In this document: one piece after another, positions 5,755-39,035 of the stretch
How positions within the stretch are numbered: position 1 is the stretch's first letter
Layout: each line of letters opens with the position of its first letter
Virus record (IMG/VR): IMGVR_UViG_3300014201_000015
Span: 1-39,035 of that record
Source: a virus
Lineage: Duplodnaviria; Caudoviricetes
Reading direction: 5' to 3' (one strand)
DNA: 39,035 nucleotides
The notes under the pieces: generated by a model
Databases searched by the model: none
What the model saw: only the letters and a program-made list of their open reading frames with translations
What the model was told of the DNA's origin: nothing
Translations under genes and position numbers: made by a program

Positions 5755-8682
5755 TTAATTTACAATCCACCATCCAATAGTACTAGTATCCAAAGCACTA
5801 CTAGAATTGATCACAAAACTTGTTCCAGCAGTTACGGTTCCTACAGCTGGGAAACCAGGAGTTCCAGAAGCATTTTGCGGCGTCAGGAAAATAATGCTAC
5901 TAGAAGTAACTGCAGTCGTCATAACAGTCGCTGTTCCCCCTACAAGAGCAATTGCTCCTATTGAAGCATTCGAACCAGTCGCAATCGTGATTTTACTACC
6001 GGCAGTTGGAAAAGTAAGATTTCCATCTACTTGAGTGTTTCCATTGACTTCGATATTGCCAAAAAATAGAGCTGGACCGCTCTTAGAGCTTCCCCATGTC
6101 ACATTCGTTGCTGTTCCAGCGATGACTGCATTGTCTGGGAATTGAGCATCTGTAAAGGTGATGAAAGGCGCTCCTGTAAGTTGGATCGCCGGATTGTTAT
6201 CTGTAAAAAATGTACAACCAGCAAATTCAGAAACTTGAGCATCAGAGGCAGAGAAAGTCAATGCTGGAACACCACTTCCCTCATCATAAAACTGACAGTC
6301 ATAGAAATGTCCATAGGTAGTAGTTCCCGTAATGATGACCTGTTCTCCGAAGAAAACGTCTTTACAAAGACTGAAACGCGCATTGATGGTCGTGGGACAT
6401 GCTATGGTAGAAGCGATGGCATCCATATTGCCGATGTTAAAAATATTCGATCCATAGCCCATGCCTGGACAATAATACAATGCTACCTCGGAATTAGGAG
6501 AGTTCATGATTCCATCGCTGCCCGAACCTATAGAAAGTGAAGTCTGACATTGAATGAAAGTAGTGTTAATCGTCATCCAATTAGGGAGATTGAGAGTGTA
6601 CCCATTGCCTGCGTACAGAGCGACGTTGTTGAAATAGAAATCAGCAGTTCCTGCTGCTGAACTCGAGATGATGCTCCCCGAAGGATATTGCAATTCTAAT
6701 GACTGGAATCCCATGAGCATTCCAGATCCTGTAACAGGAGTATGAGTTCCTACGATAACGACATCTTGACTTGGCACTACTCCGGATCCTATCAATAGTA
6801 CGTTGTTCGCTAGAGTGAGATTTTCAGTGTAAGTACCAGGTTGTATCCAAACCGTCCCTCCACCAACTGCATTGGCAGCGTTAATAGCAGATTGGATGGT
6901 AGAATAGGGAGATTGGCTAGTTAATCCCACTATATAAGGAGAAACTGGAAAGCGCGATGCCAAAGCTGAATCTGCATCTGACACCCATCTCTCGTTTGCA
7001 TCATAAGTCAAATCCATAACTCCATAAGCAACTGAGATGGTCTGAGTAGTACTAGAGACGCCTCCTGATACAATAGGGCTGCTATTTCCATTTACTGTAA
7101 TATTATTAGTCGCTGAGTTCCCATCAGCATCTTCAATAATGATGTGACGTCCTATAACAGAATTTGCAAAAGCAGGAAGAATAATTGTGATTGCACCACC
7201 AAACGATTTAACGGAAATATAGAAATCATTCGCTGCAACAGTATAGGGAGACATTCCGAAAGTAACTTCTGTGACTTTTCCAGTTTGAGAACCTTCGATT
7301 AATGTATTTCCAGTATCCGAGGAGCCCCATGAGATATTAGTAATTGAACTTGAGATAACAGCGGTATTCGGAAACATTCCGTCGGTTATTTGTAAGACTG
7401 CGGTTCCAGTTCCAGCAAGAGCTGTCGAAGAAGTGGTCGATAAATTACATGCGATCAGAGAACTGTTCGATCCAGCAGTGCTATTAAAAGTAAAAGGAGC
7501 CGATGCCGCTAATTGGAAAGTACAAAAATTGCAAATTGCATTCGCTGTGGCCGACACGGTAAATCCGCCGAGGAAAGTGCTATGAAGGCAAGTAGAAGAT
7601 CCACTGATAACTACAGGACATCTAAAAAATGAATCAGATGCCTGAAAAGAACCTACCGTCAAGCTAGCACTAGAGGTACTACCTACGTTCCCTTCACTAC
7701 AATTAGTGAAAGAACAGCCAGCATTAGGGGCATTAATGACAGCATCGCCAGTGCCACTACTTTGAAAATTATCGAATCCGAAATTACCGGTCCAATTAGC
7801 AAGATTCAATGTATAACCGCTTCCGCCTCCTGAAAAAGGATTCGAAACGACATTACGCAATAAAATGTCGCCAGTGCCAGCAGCCGCGCTAGAAAAAATA
7901 TGAGAGGTGCTAGCAAAGTTTATATTCTCAAAAGAAATCAACCCTGTCGTAGGAGGAGTATGAGTGCCGATTATATTAATCGGATCAACATATTCATTAG
8001 ATGTTCCGACGACTGCTATAGATGGATAAAGAATTAAATTCTCAGTATAAGTCCCTGGCTGAACATAAACTGCACCACCACCCGCTGTATTGGCTGCGTT
8101 GATCGCAGATTGAATTGTCTGATACCCAGCTTGACCTACAGGACCAACAACGTAAGGGGTGATCGGATAGAGATTTGGTGCTGTAGAGCTACTAATAGTG
8201 AGAGTAGAACCTGCTCCTGCGACAGAAATCGATCCAGATCCAATGACATTGATGTTTCCAGCTGTTGGAGAAATCGCTCCTCCGCTATTTCCTGTCAGAG
8301 TTTCAACGCCAGAGCTTCCAGTTGCAGTAATAGTCAAAGTGCTTCCAGATCCCGAGGTAACGATTCCTGTTCCTCCAAGAATATCTACAGCTCCACTGAG
8401 TGACGGACCAGAATTGCCTGTGATCGAATTAACGCCGGACCCTCCACCGCCAGTAGATGTCCAATCTGCACTTAAAGTTCCTCCGATCGTACTGAGAGAA
8501 GTGAGAATATACGAAGTATTGGCAGCTGTATTGACCCAGATTTGACCAATTTTCAGCGTTCCACCAGAACCAGTCACATCTGTGGAAGTAGGATTTCTGG
8601 TTTCTACAATCGGCATGACTCCAGCCGAGGCTAAGGAAGTCGCACTAGCACCTATTCCATAAAGACTTGCATTTGATGTCAT
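5755..8682 (-). CDS. Large tailspike-like protein A with two pectin-lyase-like beta-helix domains
   Basis: Two copies of Y[QS]TIQSAINAA...QPGTYTENL cap motif; N- and C-termini paralogous to 8692-12144. Confidence 0.75.
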   Translation of the reverse strand: MTSNASLYGIGASATSLASAGVMPIVETRNPTSTDVTGSGGTLKIGQIWVNTAANTSYILTSLSTIGGTLSADWTSTGGGGSGVNSITGNSGPSLSGAVDILGGTGIVTSGSGSTLTITATGSSGVETLTGNSGGAISPTAGNINVIGSGSISVAGAGSTLTISSSTAPNLYPITPYVVGPVGQAGYQTIQSAINAANTAGGGAVYVQPGTYTENLILYPSIAVVGTSNEYVDPINIIGTHTPPTTGLISFENINFASTSHIFSSAAAGTGDILLRNVVSNPFSGGGSGYTLNLANWTGNFGFDNFQSSGTGDAVINAPNAGCSFTNCSEGNVGSTSSASLTVGSFQASDSFFRCPVVISGSSTCLHSTFLGGFTVSATANAICNFCTFQLAASAPFTFNSTAGSNSSLIACNLSTTSSTALAGTGTAVLQITDGMFPNTAVISSSITNISWGSSDTGNTLIEGSQTGKVTEVTFGMSPYTVAANDFYISVKSFGGAITIILPAFANSVIGRHIIIEDADGNSATNNITVNGNSSPIVSGGVSSTTQTISVAYGVMDLTYDANERWVSDADSALASRFPVSPYIVGLTSQSPYSTIQSAINAANAVGGGTVWIQPGTYTENLTLANNVLLIGSGVVPSQDVVIVGTHTPVTGSGMLMGFQSLELQYPSGSIISSSAAGTADFYFNNVALYAGNGYTLNLPNWMTINTTFIQCQTSLSIGSGSDGIMNSPNSEVALYYCPGMGYGSNIFNIGNMDAIASTIACPTTINARFSLCKDVFFGEQVIITGTTTYGHFYDCQFYDEGSGVPALTFSASDAQVSEFAGCTFFTDNNPAIQLTGAPFITFTDAQFPDNAVIAGTATNVTWGSSKSGPALFFGNIEVNGNTQVDGNLTFPTAGSKITIATGSNASIGAIALVGGTATVMTTAVTSSSIIFLTPQNASGTPGFPAVGTVTAGTSFVINSSSALDTSTIGWWIVN

Positions 8683-8691
8683 TTCTATCTT

Positions 8692-11600
8692 CTAGTTAAT
8701 GATTAACCAATTTACGTTCGAATTATCCCCGACATTGTCGGAAGTAATCGTGAAACTTACTCCTGCAGTGATCGTTCCTACAGAAAGATTTCCTAAAGTA
8801 CCTGAAGCTGCCGCACGGGAAAGAAAAATGTTGGACAATGCCGTCACCGCAGTAGTGGGAACAGTTACTGATCCACCAGCTAAAGGTGCGCTTGTTCCGA
8901 TAGAGGCATTGCTTCCAGTTGCTATCTCCAATTTCGATCCAGCCTGCATCAACTGCACATTTCCCTCTGCAGCAATCATGCCACTGATGGTCGTTCCCCA
9001 TGTGAGATTGGTAAGAGTGCCGCCAAAAGTCGCGTTATCCGGGAATTCCCCTCCTGTAACTTCGACAGGAGCCGATCCGCTGATTTCGAAAACGATAGAA
9101 TTAGAAGTATTAAAAACACAGTTGGCGAACGTGATCGGATTTGAGCCTGAACTTGATATCACAACAGTTGGACTAGGAGTTGCTGTGAAAAAATTGGAAT
9201 CATAGACATTAGAATAGGACGTTCCAGCTACTGTAAATCCCGCTCCGAAATAACTACCCGAAACGAAAGAGAATCCTTGGGATTGAGAAACAGGAGCGAT
9301 TATGACTGACGATTGTATTTCCGAGTTTCCTAGGGTCAATACATTCGCTGTTCCGTAACCTACATCTGCGCAATGATGAAAAAGACAGCTAGCTCCGGAT
9401 CCGGTGAAGAATCCGTCTGCCATTCCTCCTGAAGGAAGAATACTTCCACAATTTTCGAAGTCGACTGTACCTGATGTCCAATTAGGAATACTGAGCAGAT
9501 AGCCATTCGTGACCTCACTGAGCACATTTATGAATGCCATATTTGCCGTTCCAGCGGCTGTGCTAGAAATAGCATTCCCAGAAGTAGCCGTAAATTGAAT
9601 ATTGCCAAACATCATGGGTCCAGTAGAAGCGGCGGTATGATTTCCTATGATATTCACAGAGGATTGCGTTGCAGTTCCCCCTAATATTCTAACAAGATTT
9701 CCAGAACCTATGAGAGCTACGTTAGCAGCTAAAGTAAGATTTTCTGTATATGTTCCTGGCTGGATCCAAACAGTTCCTCCACCAGCTCCACTCGCGGCAG
9801 TAATAGCGGACTGAATTGTCTGATAGCCGGCTTGACCTACAGGACCTACAATGTAAGGAGATACGGGGAAAGCTCCAGCAGTTGGGGTAATGGTAAGAGT
9901 ACTACCACTTCCAACTACATTGTAAAGATCTCCTAATCCCTTGAGATTGATATTTCCAGCAGTCGGAGAAATAGCACCTCCGGAATCTCCAGTAATCGTA
10001 GTGACCCCTGCACCTGATGCGGAAGTAAATTGTTCAGCAATCCATATTGTTCCATTAAATGTGAGGTCCAATAAACCATAATTCGTGGTGATGAGTTGTG
10101 TAGCGGCAGAAGATCCATAAGCTGCAATATTATTGCCATTACCGCTGACTGTTATGTTGTTGGTTCCAGCATTTCCACTAGCGTCGGCTATTATGAGATG
10201 CGATCCTTTAGTAGCAAGAGCAGGAAGTGTAATCGTGATCGCGCCACCAGAACTATTGACTGCCAGGTAAAAATCAGTAGCCGAGACGGAATAAGGAGAA
10301 GCAGCAAAATTGACAGAAGTGTTTACGAATCCAGTTTGTGAACCGATAATCGTGGTATTTCCTGTTTTTGAAGATCCCCATGTGAGATTAGTTTGAGCCC
10401 CTACAATCGATGCATTGCTCGTGAATTCCGCACCGGTAATATTTAAATATGGAGTTCCCGTTAAAGAAATACATGCTGATCCAGGAGGAGCATTGAATTC
10501 ACAGTTTACAAATTGAGCAGCTGTTACGTTGGAAGAATTGTAATTTAGCGCTGGAAGAGCAGAAGGATTAGCAAAATGACAATTATAAAAAGTTCCGGTA
10601 GCAGTCGTATTTACAGTTAAGGAGTAACTAAATAATGTATCCTGTACTGAAGAAGCTCCAGAATTGATCGCAACCGGCACGCCAAATAAAGTTCCAAGAC
10701 AAAGAGATAGATTGGCAACAGAAAACGAATTTCCCGAATTTCCTCCATATCCTAAAGATATACAAGAATCTAAATAAACGGATGCATTGATCGCATTGAC
10801 CACTCCATCCGTAGTTCCTCCGCTAGCTGGAGTAGATACGCAATTCAAGAAAATGAATGTACTTCCAGAAGTCCAGTTGGGAAGATTTAACGTATATCCA
10901 TTGAAAGCTGATAAAATTACTGTATCAAACGTGAAATTGGATGAACCAGCTGCAGCACTCGTAAAAATGCTTCCGGAAGAGGAAGTCAGTACTAGATCCT
11001 TAAAGGCCATGTATGAGCCAGAAGCGGTCAGAGGAGTATGAGTTCCACTGATAATCACAGAACCTTCAGGAGAAGATCCCGAACCAATCAATGTCACGTT
11101 ATTTGAGAAGGTGAGATTTTCTGTATATGTTCCCGGCTGAATCCAGATTGTAGCTCCGGCTTCTGCGGCAGCCGCTGTAATCGCTGATTGAATAGTTTGA
11201 TATCCTGCCTGTCCAACTGGCCCAACTATATAGGGAGAAACGGGGAAAGCACCTGGAGTCGGAGTAATTGTAAGAGTATTACCGCTTCCAACTACACTGT
11301 AGAGATCTCCCAGACCTTTGATATTGATTGCACCTGAAACAGGAGTCGCTGTTCCACTGTCTCCGTTGAAAGTAGTCGCTGTTGAACCAGAACTAGTCAA
11401 AGTGAGCGTGCCCGTGGTTCCAACGAAAGTATAGCCGCTTGTTCCTCCAGAGATGTCAATATTTCCTGAAACAGGAGAAATGGCTCCTCCTGAATCTCCC
11501 GTCAAAGTATCGATAGCGGGAGATGCAGTACTAGAAATCGTTAAAGTAGAGCCAGCACCAGCTACCGCAATAGAACCCGATCCTACAACGTTAATATTTC

Positions 11601-12144
11601 CAGCGGATGGAGAAAGAGGACCTCCAGTATTTCCTGTTAAGGTATCAACTCCTGTATTGTTGATCGTAACAGTAGAGCCAGTAGCAGTCGTAGAAATCCC
11701 TGTTCCTCCTAATATATTGATATTACCACCAGATTCTGTCGCGACTCCTGAATTCCCGGTGAACGTATTGGCTCCTGAACCGGTATTAGTAATCGTTAGA
11801 GTACTGCCGGCACCAGAAGTAGTGATGCCCGTTCCACCTACGATATCTACAGCACCGCTCAATGGAGGTCCGGAATTACCTGTAATCGAATTGACACCAG
11901 AACCACCACCACCAGTAGAGGTCCAATCTGCAGCTAAAGTTCCGCCGATAGTGCTCAGTGATGTCAGAATATAAGAAGTATTGGCAGCTGTATTGACCCA
12001 GATCTGGCCGATTTTCAGTGTTCCCGCTGGTCCGGATACATCAGTGGAAGTTGGATTTCTGGTCTCTACAATGGTAAGGACGCCTGCAGAAGCTAATGAA
12101 GTAGCACTCGCTCCTATTCCATATAGACTGGCATTTGATGACAT
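8692..12144 (-). CDS. Large tailspike-like protein B with two beta-helix domains and longer repeat stalk
   Basis: Two YQTIQSAITAA...QPGTYTENL motifs; multiple TxTG[ND]SG..SP..GNINxxG repeats; AGGAG SD. Confidence 0.75.
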   Translation of the reverse strand: MSSNASLYGIGASATSLASAGVLTIVETRNPTSTDVSGPAGTLKIGQIWVNTAANTSYILTSLSTIGGTLAADWTSTGGGGSGVNSITGNSGPPLSGAVDIVGGTGITTSGAGSTLTITNTGSGANTFTGNSGVATESGGNINILGGTGISTTATGSTVTINNTGVDTLTGNTGGPLSPSAGNINVVGSGSIAVAGAGSTLTISSTASPAIDTLTGDSGGAISPVSGNIDISGGTSGYTFVGTTGTLTLTSSGSTATTFNGDSGTATPVSGAINIKGLGDLYSVVGSGNTLTITPTPGAFPVSPYIVGPVGQAGYQTIQSAITAAAAEAGATIWIQPGTYTENLTFSNNVTLIGSGSSPEGSVIISGTHTPLTASGSYMAFKDLVLTSSSGSIFTSAAAGSSNFTFDTVILSAFNGYTLNLPNWTSGSTFIFLNCVSTPASGGTTDGVVNAINASVYLDSCISLGYGGNSGNSFSVANLSLCLGTLFGVPVAINSGASSVQDTLFSYSLTVNTTATGTFYNCHFANPSALPALNYNSSNVTAAQFVNCEFNAPPGSACISLTGTPYLNITGAEFTSNASIVGAQTNLTWGSSKTGNTTIIGSQTGFVNTSVNFAASPYSVSATDFYLAVNSSGGAITITLPALATKGSHLIIADASGNAGTNNITVSGNGNNIAAYGSSAATQLITTNYGLLDLTFNGTIWIAEQFTSASGAGVTTITGDSGGAISPTAGNINLKGLGDLYNVVGSGSTLTITPTAGAFPVSPYIVGPVGQAGYQTIQSAITAASGAGGGTVWIQPGTYTENLTLAANVALIGSGNLVRILGGTATQSSVNIIGNHTAASTGPMMFGNIQFTATSGNAISSTAAGTANMAFINVLSEVTNGYLLSIPNWTSGTVDFENCGSILPSGGMADGFFTGSGASCLFHHCADVGYGTANVLTLGNSEIQSSVIIAPVSQSQGFSFVSGSYFGAGFTVAGTSYSNVYDSNFFTATPSPTVVISSSGSNPITFANCVFNTSNSIVFEISGSAPVEVTGGEFPDNATFGGTLTNLTWGTTISGMIAAEGNVQLMQAGSKLEIATGSNASIGTSAPLAGGSVTVPTTAVTALSNIFLSRAAASGTLGNLSVGTITAGVSFTITSDNVGDNSNVNWLIIN

Positions 12145-26123: not shown

Positions 26124-26330
26124 TTGTATGACACTTTAACTAAATATTTTAATTGGTACAAGATGATAGAAAGATACATACAGATTTCAGAACACGATTA
26201 CGAACGAATTACGACTTGGTGTCACGACAGTTTAGAGTTGACTAGCGATCAAGGTGACGAATTAAAAACTCTCATTCAAATGATAGCTACCATCCTGGAA
26301 ATAGATATGACTAAGGAAGAAGATCGATGA
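26124..26330 (+). CDS. Hypothetical protein (start uncertain)
   Basis: ATGA-coupled to 26327. Confidence 0.45.
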   Translation: MYDTLTKYFNWYKMIERYIQISEHDYERITTWCHDSLELTSDQGDELKTLIQMIATILEIDMTKEEDR

Positions 26331-26803
26331 AACTAGATCCTTTGGATGCACATGATCGGTTACTACATCTACACAAAGAACAGTCCAATACAATCGCACA
26401 AGGAGCTTCGGATTGCCTAAAGACAAATCCCCTCTCTTTGGCGCTCCAAGAGCATTCACCCTATGTCTATATTTTTGGACATCCTCGTACTGAGCCGGAT
26501 GGATCTACAAAAAGAATGTTATGGCAGCCTAGACTCACAAAACCAGAAGCACAGACCAATTCCTATCTATTTAGAGCAATTTCTAAGACAGATTTGCTAG
26601 AAATCATATGGATTCTTCCTCCTAGAGAATTGTGGTCCCAATATGAAGAGGGAAAAGTGTGTGCTTCGGAAGAAGTCAGAACGAGCATCAATAACTTTCT
26701 TCATTATCGAGCAGAACTGAATCAACCTCATCCAGAAGATTTATCTGATGATCAAATACTTAAGATTAGACAGACAATTGCTATGACTTTAGGAATGAGA
26801 TAA
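26327..26803 (+). CDS. Hypothetical phage protein on opposite strand inside head module
   Basis: AAGGA SD; globular composition (WQPRLTKP, WILPP). Confidence 0.7.
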   Translation: MKLDPLDAHDRLLHLHKEQSNTIAQGASDCLKTNPLSLALQEHSPYVYIFGHPRTEPDGSTKRMLWQPRLTKPEAQTNSYLFRAISKTDLLEIIWILPPRELWSQYEEGKVCASEEVRTSINNFLHYRAELNQPHPEDLSDDQILKIRQTIAMTLGMR

Positions 26804-33521: not shown

Positions 33522-33713
33522 TCACCAAACGAATTTAATCTTGACAAGACATTCATCCACTGAACCAGCAAAGTTAGTCATCGTCTCTTTCACCATTTGT
33601 CCCAGAATGGGATCATCGCGACTTAATTTCGGAGCTTCCTCTTCTTTTTCTAGACCAAATCTTTGAGTGTACGTTTGCTCTTCATTAGATACTTTGATGC
33701 AGATCTCGATCAT
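33522..33713 (-). CDS. Hypothetical protein
   Basis: ATGA-coupled to upstream ORF. Confidence 0.55.
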   Translation of the reverse strand: MIEICIKVSNEEQTYTQRFGLEKEEEAPKLSRDDPILGQMVKETMTNFAGSVDECLVKIKFVW

Positions 33714-33868
33714 TTCTTCTTTTTCATGGTAGCTTTACACTTGGCAATCATAGGATCGCGAACCTTCTCGTCATAATCAGCAAGTTTGTCATTTTTCTTT
33801 GCTGCCTTCTCTATCACGCGCTCTCCTTTTCGAAGTTCGCGTGATACTTTTCGCATCTTCTTATCCAT
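33710..33868 (-). CDS. Small basic protein (52 aa, not in ORF track)
   Basis: MDKKMRKVSRELRKGERVIEKAAKKNDKLADYDEKVRDPMIAKCKATMKKKK; coupled on both sides. Confidence 0.7.
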   Translation of the reverse strand: MDKKMRKVSRELRKGERVIEKAAKKNDKLADYDEKVRDPMIAKCKATMKKKK

Positions 33869-34059
33869 TATTTTCCCTTATGCATTTTTTTAAGGGTTTC
33901 AGCAAGACGAGCTCTTTTTGCTGTCGTGGGATTTTTAGAATGTTCCGCTTTTTTCAACTTGCTCGCTGGGATTTTTTCGCCTTCTTTTACATGAAGAGTT
34001 TTTCGTAAGGCTCCAGGATGTTTTATGGCTCCGGAAATCCATTTCTTTTTCTCAGCCAT
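33868..34059 (-). CDS. Small basic phage protein (KKWISGAIKHPGALR type)
   Basis: Lys-rich; RARLAETLKK; TAATG coupling. Confidence 0.8.
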   Translation of the reverse strand: MAEKKKWISGAIKHPGALRKTLHVKEGEKIPASKLKKAEHSKNPTTAKRARLAETLKKMHKGK

Positions 34060-34214
34060 TATTTACTCGCATGATGATGTTCTTTATGATGAGCTTTGCT
34101 TTTCTTATGAGCTTCTTTCATATGATGCATAGCATGCTTCATATGCTCATGATGATCCATACCTTCATGCTTTTTCGATTCTTCTTTCATGTGTGCTTTT
34201 TTTTTGTGGGCCAT
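34059..34214 (-). CDS. His/Lys/Met-rich microprotein (51 aa, not in ORF track)
   Basis: MAHKKKAHMKEESKKHEGMDHHEHMKHAMHHMKEAHKKSKAHHKEHHHASK; GAGGAG SD; TAATG coupling. Confidence 0.8.
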   Translation of the reverse strand: MAHKKKAHMKEESKKHEGMDHHEHMKHAMHHMKEAHKKSKAHHKEHHHASK

Positions 34215-37372: not shown

Positions 37373-37485
37373 AAAACCTCTTTAAATGCCCTGTAATCGA
37401 TTTTTTAGTTGAATGGCTACGAACATACTAATCGACCATCGATCGTTGATTGTAGAGCATTTTAGATGCCTTCCTGAACATTCTC

Positions 37486-38280
37486 TTATCGTTTATCAGT
37501 TTCATTTTTCTGGGATCCGTTAAGTGGAGCTGTTTTCTCATCCCATTGCTCATCTGAGTATAGGATTGATTTGCAAAAACTTCCATAAGTGAGTTCTAAC
37601 CCTTCTTCCGTGACAAATACGTTCCACTGATTCAATTTTTTCCCATCCCATTTCTTCGCTTGTTGTTTCCTTTTTTCTAATTCTTTTCCCTTTCCTTCAG
37701 AATCTCTAATGGATTGCATCACTGCAATCAACCAATCTCTTATATTTTTCACATGCCCTTGAGGAGTGACTTCAAATCTCTTCCAGGCTTCATCGAATTC
37801 TTTTTCTTTCCATCCAAGAGAAATCATCTTCTTCTTCATTTGGACCAAATCTTGGGGTTCATCTGATTTTTTTGGAACCTGAGGAGGAGGATCTTCTTTA
37901 TTTATTATCTCTTTTCTTACTATACCCTCATGGGTAAGGGTTCGAGCCCTCGTGGGCGAGGGTTCGTAAACATTATTTGAATTTACCCGTGCATGAGTGA
38001 TAAAAATCTTTCGATCCCAACGTAATCCGTTCTTTTTGGTTTCACGCTTTATGTACCCTATTTCTTCCAACTTCAGCAGCCAGCGTTCGATCGTTTGATG
38101 ACTGATTTTCATTCTTTCCGCCAAATATTTATCACTGGCAAAACAATATCCTGTGTTGTTCGCAAGTCCAGATAGCAATGCATAAAACATTATTTCTGAA
38201 TATTCTAAACGATCATCCTCAAAAACTTGAGATGGAATGACGTAGAAAGCGCCTAAGTGGTGCGATTCTTTAGTTGACAT
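37486..38280 (-). CDS. Replication initiator with N-terminal winged HTH
   Basis: YVIPSQV..D.RL...YALLS..GYCFASDKYLAE..TIERWLLKLEEIGYI; AAGGAG SD. Confidence 0.82.
   Translation of the reverse strand: MSTKESHHLGAFYVIPSQVFEDDRLEYSEIMFYALLSGLANNTGYCFASDKYLAERMKISHQTIERWLLKLEEIGYIKRETKKNGLRWDRKIFITHARVNSNNVYEPSPTRARTLTHEGIVRKEIINKEDPPPQVPKKSDEPQDLVQMKKKMISLGWKEKEFDEAWKRFEVTPQGHVKNIRDWLIAVMQSIRDSEGKGKELEKRKQQAKKWDGKKLNQWNVFVTEEGLELTYGSFCKSILYSDEQWDEKTAPLNGSQKNETDKR
37925..37966. repeat. Putative origin iterons inside initiator gene
   Basis: CCCTCATGGGTAAGGGTTCG and CCCTCGTGGGCGAGGGTTCG at 22-bp period, next to AT-rich DNA. Confidence 0.65.
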
Positions 38281-38344
38281 AGAGTTCTCCTTTTTGTTGA
38301 GAACCCCGTTACGACCCTGAGATTTGTCAATAAATTTCTTGTGA

Positions 38345-38383
38345 TTGCTTTAATTGCAACTTCAAGTAAAATTGGCGTATAAC
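38345..38383 (+). promoter_or_regulatory. Promoter(s) for countertranscript
   Basis: TTGCTT-16-TAAAAT and TTGCAA-18-TATAAC. Confidence 0.55.
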
Positions 38384-38384
38384 A

Positions 38385-38465
38385 TCGTTCGCCTTTTTTA
38401 TTTGTCTCGGGGTCGTATCCGGGGCTTATTCTTGCCTCGGGGTCTTATTCCGGGGCTTTTTTTTT
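38385..38465 (+). ncRNA. Putative countertranscript (antisense) RNA of rep leader; 5' end approximate
   Basis: Promoter, two tandem GC hairpins with plus-strand G-U pairs, terminal U9 tract, no ORF. Confidence 0.6.
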
Positions 38466-38469
38466 GATC

Positions 38470-38498
38470 AAAGTAATCGTTCACTGAAAATTTGTCTA
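38470..38498 (-). promoter_or_regulatory. Promoter of replication initiator
   Basis: TAGACA-17-TACTTT on minus strand. Confidence 0.6.
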
Positions 38499-38614
38499 AG
38501 ATAAAGTAAAATTTCTCTATGAAAAGCTCTTTTATATTGCAATAAATCACTCGTCAAATAGAATGAAAAACAGCAAGTGCACTGATCACGCAGTTGACCT
38601 CTAAATGTTTTACT

Positions 38615-38641
38615 AGCCCTTGGATGTTCCAGGGGCTTTTT
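38615..38641 (+). terminator. Intrinsic terminator-like hairpin
   Basis: AGCCCTTGGA-TGT-TCCAGGGGCT followed by T-run. Confidence 0.7.
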
Positions 38642-38672
38642 CCTGGTTGGGTCTCTATTTTTAGAGATCTTT

Positions 38673-38776
38673 CGAAAGGCGAAACAGAATTACACAGAAA
38701 ACAACTGTTGCTATAACAGTCATCGTTGCTTGGGTCATCTCTCTCACTTTTTCTTAGGAGTTTTAAGTCCTTTTTT
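38673..38776. repeat. 104-bp exact direct repeat, copy 2
   Basis: Identical to 1-104. Confidence 0.95.
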
Positions 38777-38926
38777 TCTAGCCTCTGAAAGACTTATAGC
38801 AATCGCTTGTTTCGGGTTCGTAACGGTTGGACCGGTGCCTTTAGTCCGTGAATGCATATGACCTTCTTTAAAAGTATGCATGCGTTTTTCGATAAATTTT
38901 TTAGCTTTCTTAGATTCTTTCGCCAT
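38744..38926 (-). CDS. Small basic DUF6496-like protein, allele B
   Basis: MHTFKEGHMHS...VTNPKQAIAISLSEARK. Confidence 0.85.
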   Translation of the reverse strand: MAKESKKAKKFIEKRMHTFKEGHMHSRTKGTGPTVTNPKQAIAISLSEARKKGLKTPKKK

Positions 38927-38933
38927 ATCTCTC

Positions 38934-39035
38934 TCAACTTATGAATTCTGTAATAACAATGACTCCAGAGACGCCATTTCCCCCAGAGGCATTCGCGGCA
39001 TTTGCAGCTACTCCACCACCAGCTCCTCCTCCTCC
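38934..39035 (-). CDS. C-terminal fragment of a fourth glycine-rich fibre variant (truncated by window end)
   Basis: GGGGAGGGVAANAANASGGNGVSGVIVITEFIS*, matching the end motif of paralogues 1-3 but identical to none. Confidence 0.8.
   Translation of the reverse strand, partial: GGGGAGGGVAANAANASGGNGVSGVIVITEFIS

Follow-up and report, generated by a model that had tools for sequence, protein, structure and literature searches.

The analysed stretch of DNA, hereafter the window, is a whole virus record of 39,035 bp with an estimated completeness of 99%. Pfam and PHROGs searches revealed genes for a P22-like portal, a terminase, a major head protein and tail proteins, along with ERF, a PD-(D/E)XK exonuclease and RusA. 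The phage structural and packaging genes that belong to the definition of a phage-plasmid are hence present, and no tRNA genes were found in the window. On the minus strand a gene for a replication initiator (rep, 37486..38280) encodes a protein of 264 aa with an N-terminal winged helix of the HTH_36 family (PF13730, E 7.6e-11), which is its only Pfam domain; RepA_N is absent. The protein matches the PHROGs category 'replication initiation protein' (E 6e-19), and its structure model shows a confident winged helix (pLDDT 83). A fold search placed the N-domains of Rep initiators and of DnaD, as weak hits (E ~1e-3), amid generic winged helices, a search of PDB sequences with the initiator profile gave 0 matches, and homologues of the window's initiator are distant (28-64%).

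Within the linker of rep we identified two 20-nt direct repeats with a period of 22 bp and 85% identity (37925..37966, strand unassigned). They sit at 40% of the gene, a central position like that of the origin repeats in pSK41-type initiator genes. Similar repeats, counted without a shuffle control, occur in 43 of 47 related initiators, in 39 of these at 25-55% of gene length. Such mid-gene repeats fit an origin inside the gene, and the repeats at 37925..37966 are likely its iterons.

Elements and predicted folds of the rep leader

The rep gene starts with an ATG at 38280, preceded by the SD AAGGAG (38292-38287, minus strand). An earlier note on this DNA had placed a minus-strand promoter upstream, and the hexamers TAGACA (38498-38493) and TACTTT (38475-38470) with their 17-nt spacer are indeed there (38470..38498); the site is the best of its segment, but it is not significant (p 0.26) and is retained as a candidate. 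From its predicted start near 38463 the leader measures 183 nt, in agreement with the roughly 180 nt proposed. TAGAC-type hexamers recur at the rep-promoter place in four relatives (L403, L407, L084 and L107), while sense-promoter enrichment across the family was not significant (combined p 0.32). These scans used sigma-70-like weights; a strict promoter scanner lists neither this candidate nor the antisense promoter described below.

The hairpin suggested to trap part of the SD could be confirmed. It joins 38307-38299 with 38289-38281 by 9 bp around a 9-nt loop (38281..38307, minus), sequesters the last three SD bases (GAG of AAGGAG) and represents the predicted OFF state, which forms when the antisense span is blocked. 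The upstream segment said to compete with this hairpin was recovered as an inverted repeat of 19 nt with 84% identity (38304-38322 / 38405-38423), the top one of those listed in 37400-39035. In the predicted ON state a downstream arm that includes the anti-SD (38299..38323, minus) pairs with an upstream arm, of which the window holds two copies. Copy 1 (38404..38426, minus), the anti-anti-SD, is used by the lowest-energy ON fold; copy 2 (38432..38456, minus) is a redundant anti-anti-SD and forms a terminator stem on the plus strand. Read on the plus strand the two copies appear as hairpins at 38404-38425 and 38434-38456, which constitute a 30-nt direct repeat (73%), and either copy can serve as the anti-anti-SD arm.

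The leader folds with a z of -4.95 (none of 200 shuffles is equally stable), and the long-range helix makes up its fold of lowest energy. The duplex between arm and anti-SD reaches -34.1 kcal/mol (z -4.67, p 0.01), and against natural non-cognate leaders the cognate duplex ranks 1/49. In the swap control of site opening two foreign upstream segments opened the window site as well as its own segment did, which ranked 3/49. The check that the earlier note had proposed, folding the leader with and without the antisense RNA, came out as expected: the site is predicted to be open in the leader alone and closed when the antisense span is occupied. Opening the 22-nt ribosome site costs a predicted 2.35 kcal/mol in the free leader and 7.9-8.3 with the antisense span blocked, and the shift on blocking amounts to 4-7.6 kcal/mol across five leader lengths. 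With only one repeat copy blocked the site stays open (2.3-2.6 kcal/mol). Blocking bases in the folding model presumes a complete duplex and leaves out kinetics. A co-fold of antisense RNA and leader gave the full duplex plus the SD hairpin, together with an additional OFF-state helix, predicted at this single locus, that pairs 38334-38325 with 38279-38269 (38269..38334, minus) and covers the UG of the start codon. It counts against the switch that the ON state retains a 4-bp hairpin and that only three SD bases pair in the OFF hairpin. Leaders starting below 38404 are predicted to be closed, with a local opening cost of 8.8 kcal/mol. According to prefix folding the open helix would already be in place when transcription reaches the SD. 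The antisense RNA would thus need to bind at an early moment or else to displace this helix. The long-range pairing amounts to -34.1 kcal/mol on the mRNA strand versus -38.0 on its complement; over the leaders compared it is likewise no stronger on the mRNA strand (17/26), and strand bias therefore does not single out RNA. The minus strand also holds a 50-codon GTG frame (38398-38550) that runs across both arms.

On the plus strand the likely antisense promoter is TTGCTT-16-TAAAAT (38345..38372), the best-scoring site, with p 0.20 when taken alone and a start near 38379; an alternative, TTGCAA-18-TATAAC, would start near 38390. One relative (L113) carries identical antisense-promoter hexamers and spacing. 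From the likely start an RNA of about 88 nt is predicted (38379..38466, plus), with an unstructured 5' tail of about 25 nt and a structured 3' part that ends in an intrinsic-terminator-like hairpin and T9 (38434..38465; the T run covers 38457-38465). The earlier note had described a plus-strand RNA of about 80 nt with two tandem hairpins and without an ORF. The hairpins, the T9 run and the antisense match to the upstream arm are present, but the promoter is not significant by itself, the predicted length is about 88 nt, and the lowest fold of the free RNA is one nested hairpin (-28.6 kcal/mol) rather than the two-hairpin form (-26.3). The RNA lacks an ORF only above 37 codons on the plus strand, since a TTG frame of that length lies at 38354-38467. 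Rfam gave no match for this region of the window (best E 0.53), nor for 14 related loci.

A second candidate small RNA of about 70 nt lies nearby (38537-38645, plus), with the promoter-like TTGCAA-16-TAGAAT and a terminator at 38615-38637 that resembles the leader repeat (72% over 25 nt). It converges on an ORF for a hydrophobic peptide of 25 aa (38738-38661, minus). We rejected a reading of this ORF as a type I toxin, given that it has no Pfam match and that such ORFs occur in just 3/47 loci.

Recurrence among related phages

The phage family was defined by terminase and capsid homology (capsid 84-94% identity, 263 loci), so that leaders were not chosen by leader. The viral collection holds these 263 capsid relatives, the 90% capsid cluster has 714 members, and no capsid match was found among deposited phages or plasmids. 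In eight relatives (L490-L497) the capsid matches are longer, at about 1,160-1,200 bp against about 960, which is consistent with introns. Initiators were found by profile in 18/30, 10/30 and 2/5 records and at 3/9 loci, giving 33 leaders; these counts cover profile-positive records. A leader passed the switch test when its best duplex between -260..-55 and -50..-17 reached p<=0.02 against dinucleotide shuffles and when presence of the upstream part lowered the cost of opening its ribosome site by 2 kcal/mol or more. Two sets served as controls: other genes of related phages whose non-coding leader measures 130 nt or more (143 of 271 were analysed), and distant HTH_36 initiators (41 of 109 kept; 68 were removed as duplicates or for a short or masked flank). 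One locus (L518) was dropped as a second piece of genome G422, and L110, a near-duplicate of L107, was dropped from the swap and strand comparisons. A further 16 initiator-homology loci had been picked by eye, and their pass rate of 6/16 was not used as a test.

Of the 33 family leaders 11 passed at the rep start and 22 failed; 13/33 passed when two upstream-ORF starts were included. None of the 143 other phage genes and none of the 41 distant initiators did (Fisher 2e-9 and 5e-5). This recurrence in the family versus both controls supports the switch logic of the earlier note. In an all-against-all swap the cognate arm came first of 49 in 18/49 leaders, 14/33 in the family. The 21 positive leaders have at most three 11-mers in common, which means that the design recurs without sequence conservation. 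Family leaders do not align, and three with a common promoter block align poorly in the arms. These three (L084, L406 and L407) share one antisense-promoter block while their arms and initiators differ, and a motif scan with the block pattern matched only these three places in the viral collection.

The flanking signals are enriched on one strand. Antisense terminators (<= -12 kcal/mol) occur in 22/33 family leaders versus 9/143 controls, while terminators in sense direction are not enriched (4/33 versus 9/143). Antisense promoters lie between the arms in 10/22 leaders at p<=0.1 (combined 9e-8), as compared to 1/22 on the opposite strand (combined 0.47) and 6/60 in controls (0.54). All positive leaders have a downstream copy that overlaps the anti-SD, and in 17/21 the upstream copy is located in or beside the antisense terminator. 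With the antisense span blocked the site is predicted to close by 2.9-12.3 kcal/mol in 21/21 positive leaders, a set that was pre-selected and in which six starts were set by hand. The switch stands before HTH_36 proteins, before Phage_rep_O proteins (L407, L506) and before proteins without a Pfam match (L403, L406, L419). For 21 of the 33 initiators of the family a Cro-like gene lies no more than 1 kb ahead, which is a lambdoid layout; presence of the switch was not significantly associated with absence of such an upstream gene (7/13 versus 5/20, p 0.14). At two loci (L508, 959-1018, plus strand; L528, reverse strand from 1007) the ribosome site opened by the switch belongs to a short upstream ORF. 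The stop codon of this ORF overlaps or directly adjoins the start of the initiator gene, a layout that suggests translational coupling.

Proposed mechanism, alternative readings and known systems

Our preferred reading, which we regard as probable, is that the rep leader is a two-state translational switch closed by a likely antisense RNA of about 88 nt, similar to pSK41. In the leader alone either upstream arm copy would pair with the anti-SD and keep the ribosome site almost unpaired. Binding of the antisense RNA would mask the two arm copies, which lie about 100-185 nt ahead of the start codon. The anti-SD, now released, would pair with the SD, the start codon may be shut in by an extra helix, and the initiator would no longer be made although transcription would not be terminated. 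We infer that both RNAs are made and that they pair in vivo. As the dose of antisense RNA would track genome copy number, the outcome would be negative feedback on replication from the iteron-like origin in rep. Transcription attenuation was considered and rejected, there being no U-run after the SD hairpin in the window and a U-run in only 2/26 leaders.

It is conceivable that the antisense promoter matters and not its RNA, by convergent interference, tuning of origin activation or RNase III cutting of the duplex, with the pairings being secondary. Lambda offers a precedent, since in the passages concerned pO acts on replication by its activity and OOP RNA leaves O-P mRNA stability unchanged (PMC3985674), and the lambdoid position of many family initiators behind a Cro-like gene and antisense terminators twice as frequent as the full switch point the same way. 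We nevertheless consider this explanation improbable, as it does not account for the cognate pairing of arm and anti-SD within the antisense span, nor for the duplicated arm of the window. Somewhat less probable again is a two-state leader that is flipped by a protein, by a ribosome on an upstream ORF or by the transcript start point, armless transcripts being closed. The short ORFs ending at or near the rep start at L508 and L528, the 50-codon frame across both window arms and the predicted closure of transcripts from below 38404 are in line with such triggers, but antisense promoter and terminator signals bracket the arm family-wide, and the 50-codon frame begins upstream of the candidate promoter.

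That the repeats act as DNA, be it as operators for Rep or a repressor, as a cruciform or as ends of a small inserted element, would agree with three related copies of one motif in the window and with a pairing energy without strand bias. We rate this as very improbable, because the copies keep their places at the anti-SD and the antisense terminator while their letters are wholly different between phages, and because the likely binding repeats of the initiator lie inside rep and have another sequence. Chance complementarity between a G/C-rich terminator patch and an SD hairpin in an A/T-rich region can hardly be the explanation: G/C runs do pair readily, and the best foreign leader reaches -26.2 kcal/mol with the window anti-SD, but neither control set yielded a single pass where a third of the family leaders did.

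Antisense control of initiator translation is a textbook plasmid device, and the immunity RNAs P4 CI and P1 C4 are same-strand processed RNAs that act on two leader targets; the window RNA has no Rfam match. The closest counterpart is pSK41, a staphylococcal RepA_N plasmid, together with the hybrid replicons pPR9 and pUSA03. RNAI of pSK41 is described as an RNA of about 83 nt, located about 100 nt upstream of the translation start, which makes a stem-loop form that shuts off the ribosome site with no attenuation involved, and the origin repeats lie in rep; pPR9 has a PF13730 N-domain under a pSK41 control region (passages on these plasmids in PMC5703833). The predicted geometry of the window equals this description, with a predicted 88 nt and a 5' end about 99 nt upstream (PMC5703833, same passages). 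Both would hide the ribosome site rather than terminate, in the window as judged by folding and by the missing U-run. Where RNAI is described with two stem-loops and a 5' tail, the window RNA has a predicted tail and its nested hairpin is favoured over two hairpins. The earlier note's comparison with pSK41 is thus supported by folding and by family-wide recurrence versus controls. Differences concern the replicon, which in the window is a tailed phage equipped with genes for portal, terminase and capsid, as opposed to pSK41, pPR9 and pUSA03; the initiator, which is HTH_36 and not RepA_N; the duplicated arm; and the several initiator families behind the switch in the phage family. No sequence relation to RNAI was found for the window RNA in Rfam. 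The window switch, as modelled, works like that of pSK41 but is not a member of this group, as initiator family and replicon type differ.

In pT181, as described in the relevant passages, a pre-emptor pairs with the 5' arm of the ribosome-site hairpin until an 87-nt antisense RNA frees this arm (PMC5703833). The window likewise has a predicted upstream pre-emptor, but pT181, a rolling-circle plasmid and not a phage, terminates at the hairpin, whereas the window hairpin has no U-run. The match to the repABC plasmids of Alphaproteobacteria claimed in the earlier note holds in layout and in the logic of a free site, but not in the terminator. According to the sections on ctRNA, in its absence the SD and the start codon stay accessible beside a large stem-loop, and ctRNA, when present, induces an intrinsic terminator (PMC3155836). 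An antisense gene just upstream of the initiator and an origin inside the initiator gene are shared, in the window as predictions (PMC3155836, same sections), while the window encodes neither repA/repB nor RepC and gave no Rfam ctRNA match. Lambda OOP/pO is alike in having a short antisense transcript, in the window a predicted one, upstream of a phage initiator gene that holds its own origin. In the passages concerned OOP targets cII mRNA and not O, and O-P mRNA stability is unaltered (PMC3985674, PMC12197685). In the window, by comparison, the target span is without a gene, and it is the ribosome site of the initiator itself that is predicted to be affected; no recognisable gene lies between promoter and rep as in a cII-like arrangement, and the family profile detected no Cro-like match. 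Among other systems, the excerpts state that some chlamydial plasmids bear phage gene sets and that Inc of ColIb-P9 blocks an activating pseudoknot (PMC7846284, PMC8383071).

We found no description of an antisense switch on a tailed-phage initiator in the open-licence PMC and bioRxiv literature. A plasmid-style replication brake likely operates in a large phage family mostly without recognisable integrases and repressors. If real, it would offer a testable account of replication control, and perhaps of persistence, in lambdoid-looking phages that have neither integrase nor CI repressor. Since they are cognate-specific, the arm pairs would moreover make up a natural collection of orthogonal riboregulators.

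Lifestyle, host and possible purpose

As stated in the earlier note, the window has no recognisable integrase: PF00589 and PF00239 are absent in six frames, and ParA, resolvase and S24/CI-type repressors were not found in the window either. We extended the search to 60 related records, 59 of them related by capsid or terminase and one by initiator. S24 (CI-type) repressors occurred in 0/60, tyrosine recombinases in 2/60, small serine recombinases in 3/60 and ParA over the cut-off in 3/60; altogether only 8/60 encode maintenance genes of any such kind, and PF00589/PF00239 are absent from 55/60. The two tyrosine recombinases are of the chlamydial-plasmid Pgp7/8 type and XerD-like, and neither is a typical prophage integrase. 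The former (L551, G403:C1 5804-6748) adjoins the terminase of a switch-positive relative, and its best matches among those listed are Pgp7/8-type integrases of chlamydial plasmids (38-40% over 92-98% of the length). Switch-positive phages with maintenance genes are this one (G403) and G413, which encodes ParA. The sporadic plasmid-type genes (L531 759-1635, L553 1594-2232, L529 1444-2316, and L545-L547) comprise genes for short ParA proteins, one of which has a ribbon-helix-helix gene behind it, as well as for a XerD-like recombinase and for small serine recombinases.

This gene pattern, with integrase and repressor rare or absent, fits plasmid-like persistence. Purely lytic phages also lack integrase, repressor and partition genes, and a partition system is absent from most family members. 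Model phage-plasmids are expected to encode partition systems in the passages that treat them (PMC7969092). Extrachromosomal prophages are likewise described, in the sections concerned, as having no integrase but parABS and an RNA near the replication functions, and the non-RepA ones among those of mycobacteriophages rely on a non-coding RNA instead of an initiator (PMC7157519). The absent integrase and an RNA near the replication functions, in the window a predicted one, are common to both, whereas the window has no counterpart to the partition system described for them. Persistence of the window phage as an episome, that is as a phage-plasmid, is plausible.

As to the purpose of the switch, we infer that copy control of a non-integrated carrier state has close to an even chance; damping of early lytic replication seems doubtful, and that it mainly serves to keep out like phages seems rather unlikely. 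The host may well be a chlamydia. This is suggested by an initiator with the same leader layout (L204) in a bin titled uncultured Chlamydiae, which passes the switch test with a trimmed leader and fails in the fixed window, by related phage contigs in 6/400 Chlamydiota genomes (the search was confined to Chlamydiota), and by the Pgp7/8 link. The ParA, resolvase and XerD-like proteins show homologies that point to no single taxon. Two initiators from Chlamydiota genomes, L319 and L321 (the latter on a contig of 137 kb that also has distant phage genes), do not pass the switch test (n=2). Distant relatives with capsids of 22-45% occur in Chlamydiota bins (G150:C102, G396:C145, G286:C1 and G172:C4), two on phage-sized contigs and two within contigs of 137 kb and 223 kb. 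On a wider view one might speculate, tentatively and with the odds against it, that a large and so far undescribed group of tailed phages, whose hosts are probably environmental chlamydiae, lives on inside these intracellular hosts as plasmids without integrase or CI repressor and uses a swappable antisense switch for copy control and immunity or incompatibility, with an own arm sequence for each phage and a cassette recombined freely among initiator families.

Some further observations concern the record itself. Bases 1-104 of the window recur exactly at 38673, beyond which the ends (to 39035) diverge to 73% identity over 365 columns and hold two alleles of a DUF6496 gene and a glycine-rich tail gene. 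The likely reason is a circular genome of 38,672 bp with a variant segment, or else a fourth paralogue. One contig of DNA run X1 extends about 3.8 kb past window position 1, and contigs from two DNA runs contained 0 leader variants. According to Pfam the ranges 259-2702 and 5755-12144 contain three Gly_rich_2 paralogues in tandem and two large proteins that end in a K1-lyase C-terminal domain. An ORF of 158 aa (26327-26803, plus), opposite to the late genes, has no match in Pfam or PHROGs and gave a weak lead in an Atlas look-up; it is kept at 33-61% in 8/9 terminase-defined relatives. Small ORFs for very basic, Lys/His-rich proteins cluster at 33710-34214, 38744-38926 and 72-251. One of them weakly resembles Fusellovirus VP2 (E 0.008), ORF homologues occur in several relatives, and these proteins are possibly DNA-condensing components of the virion.
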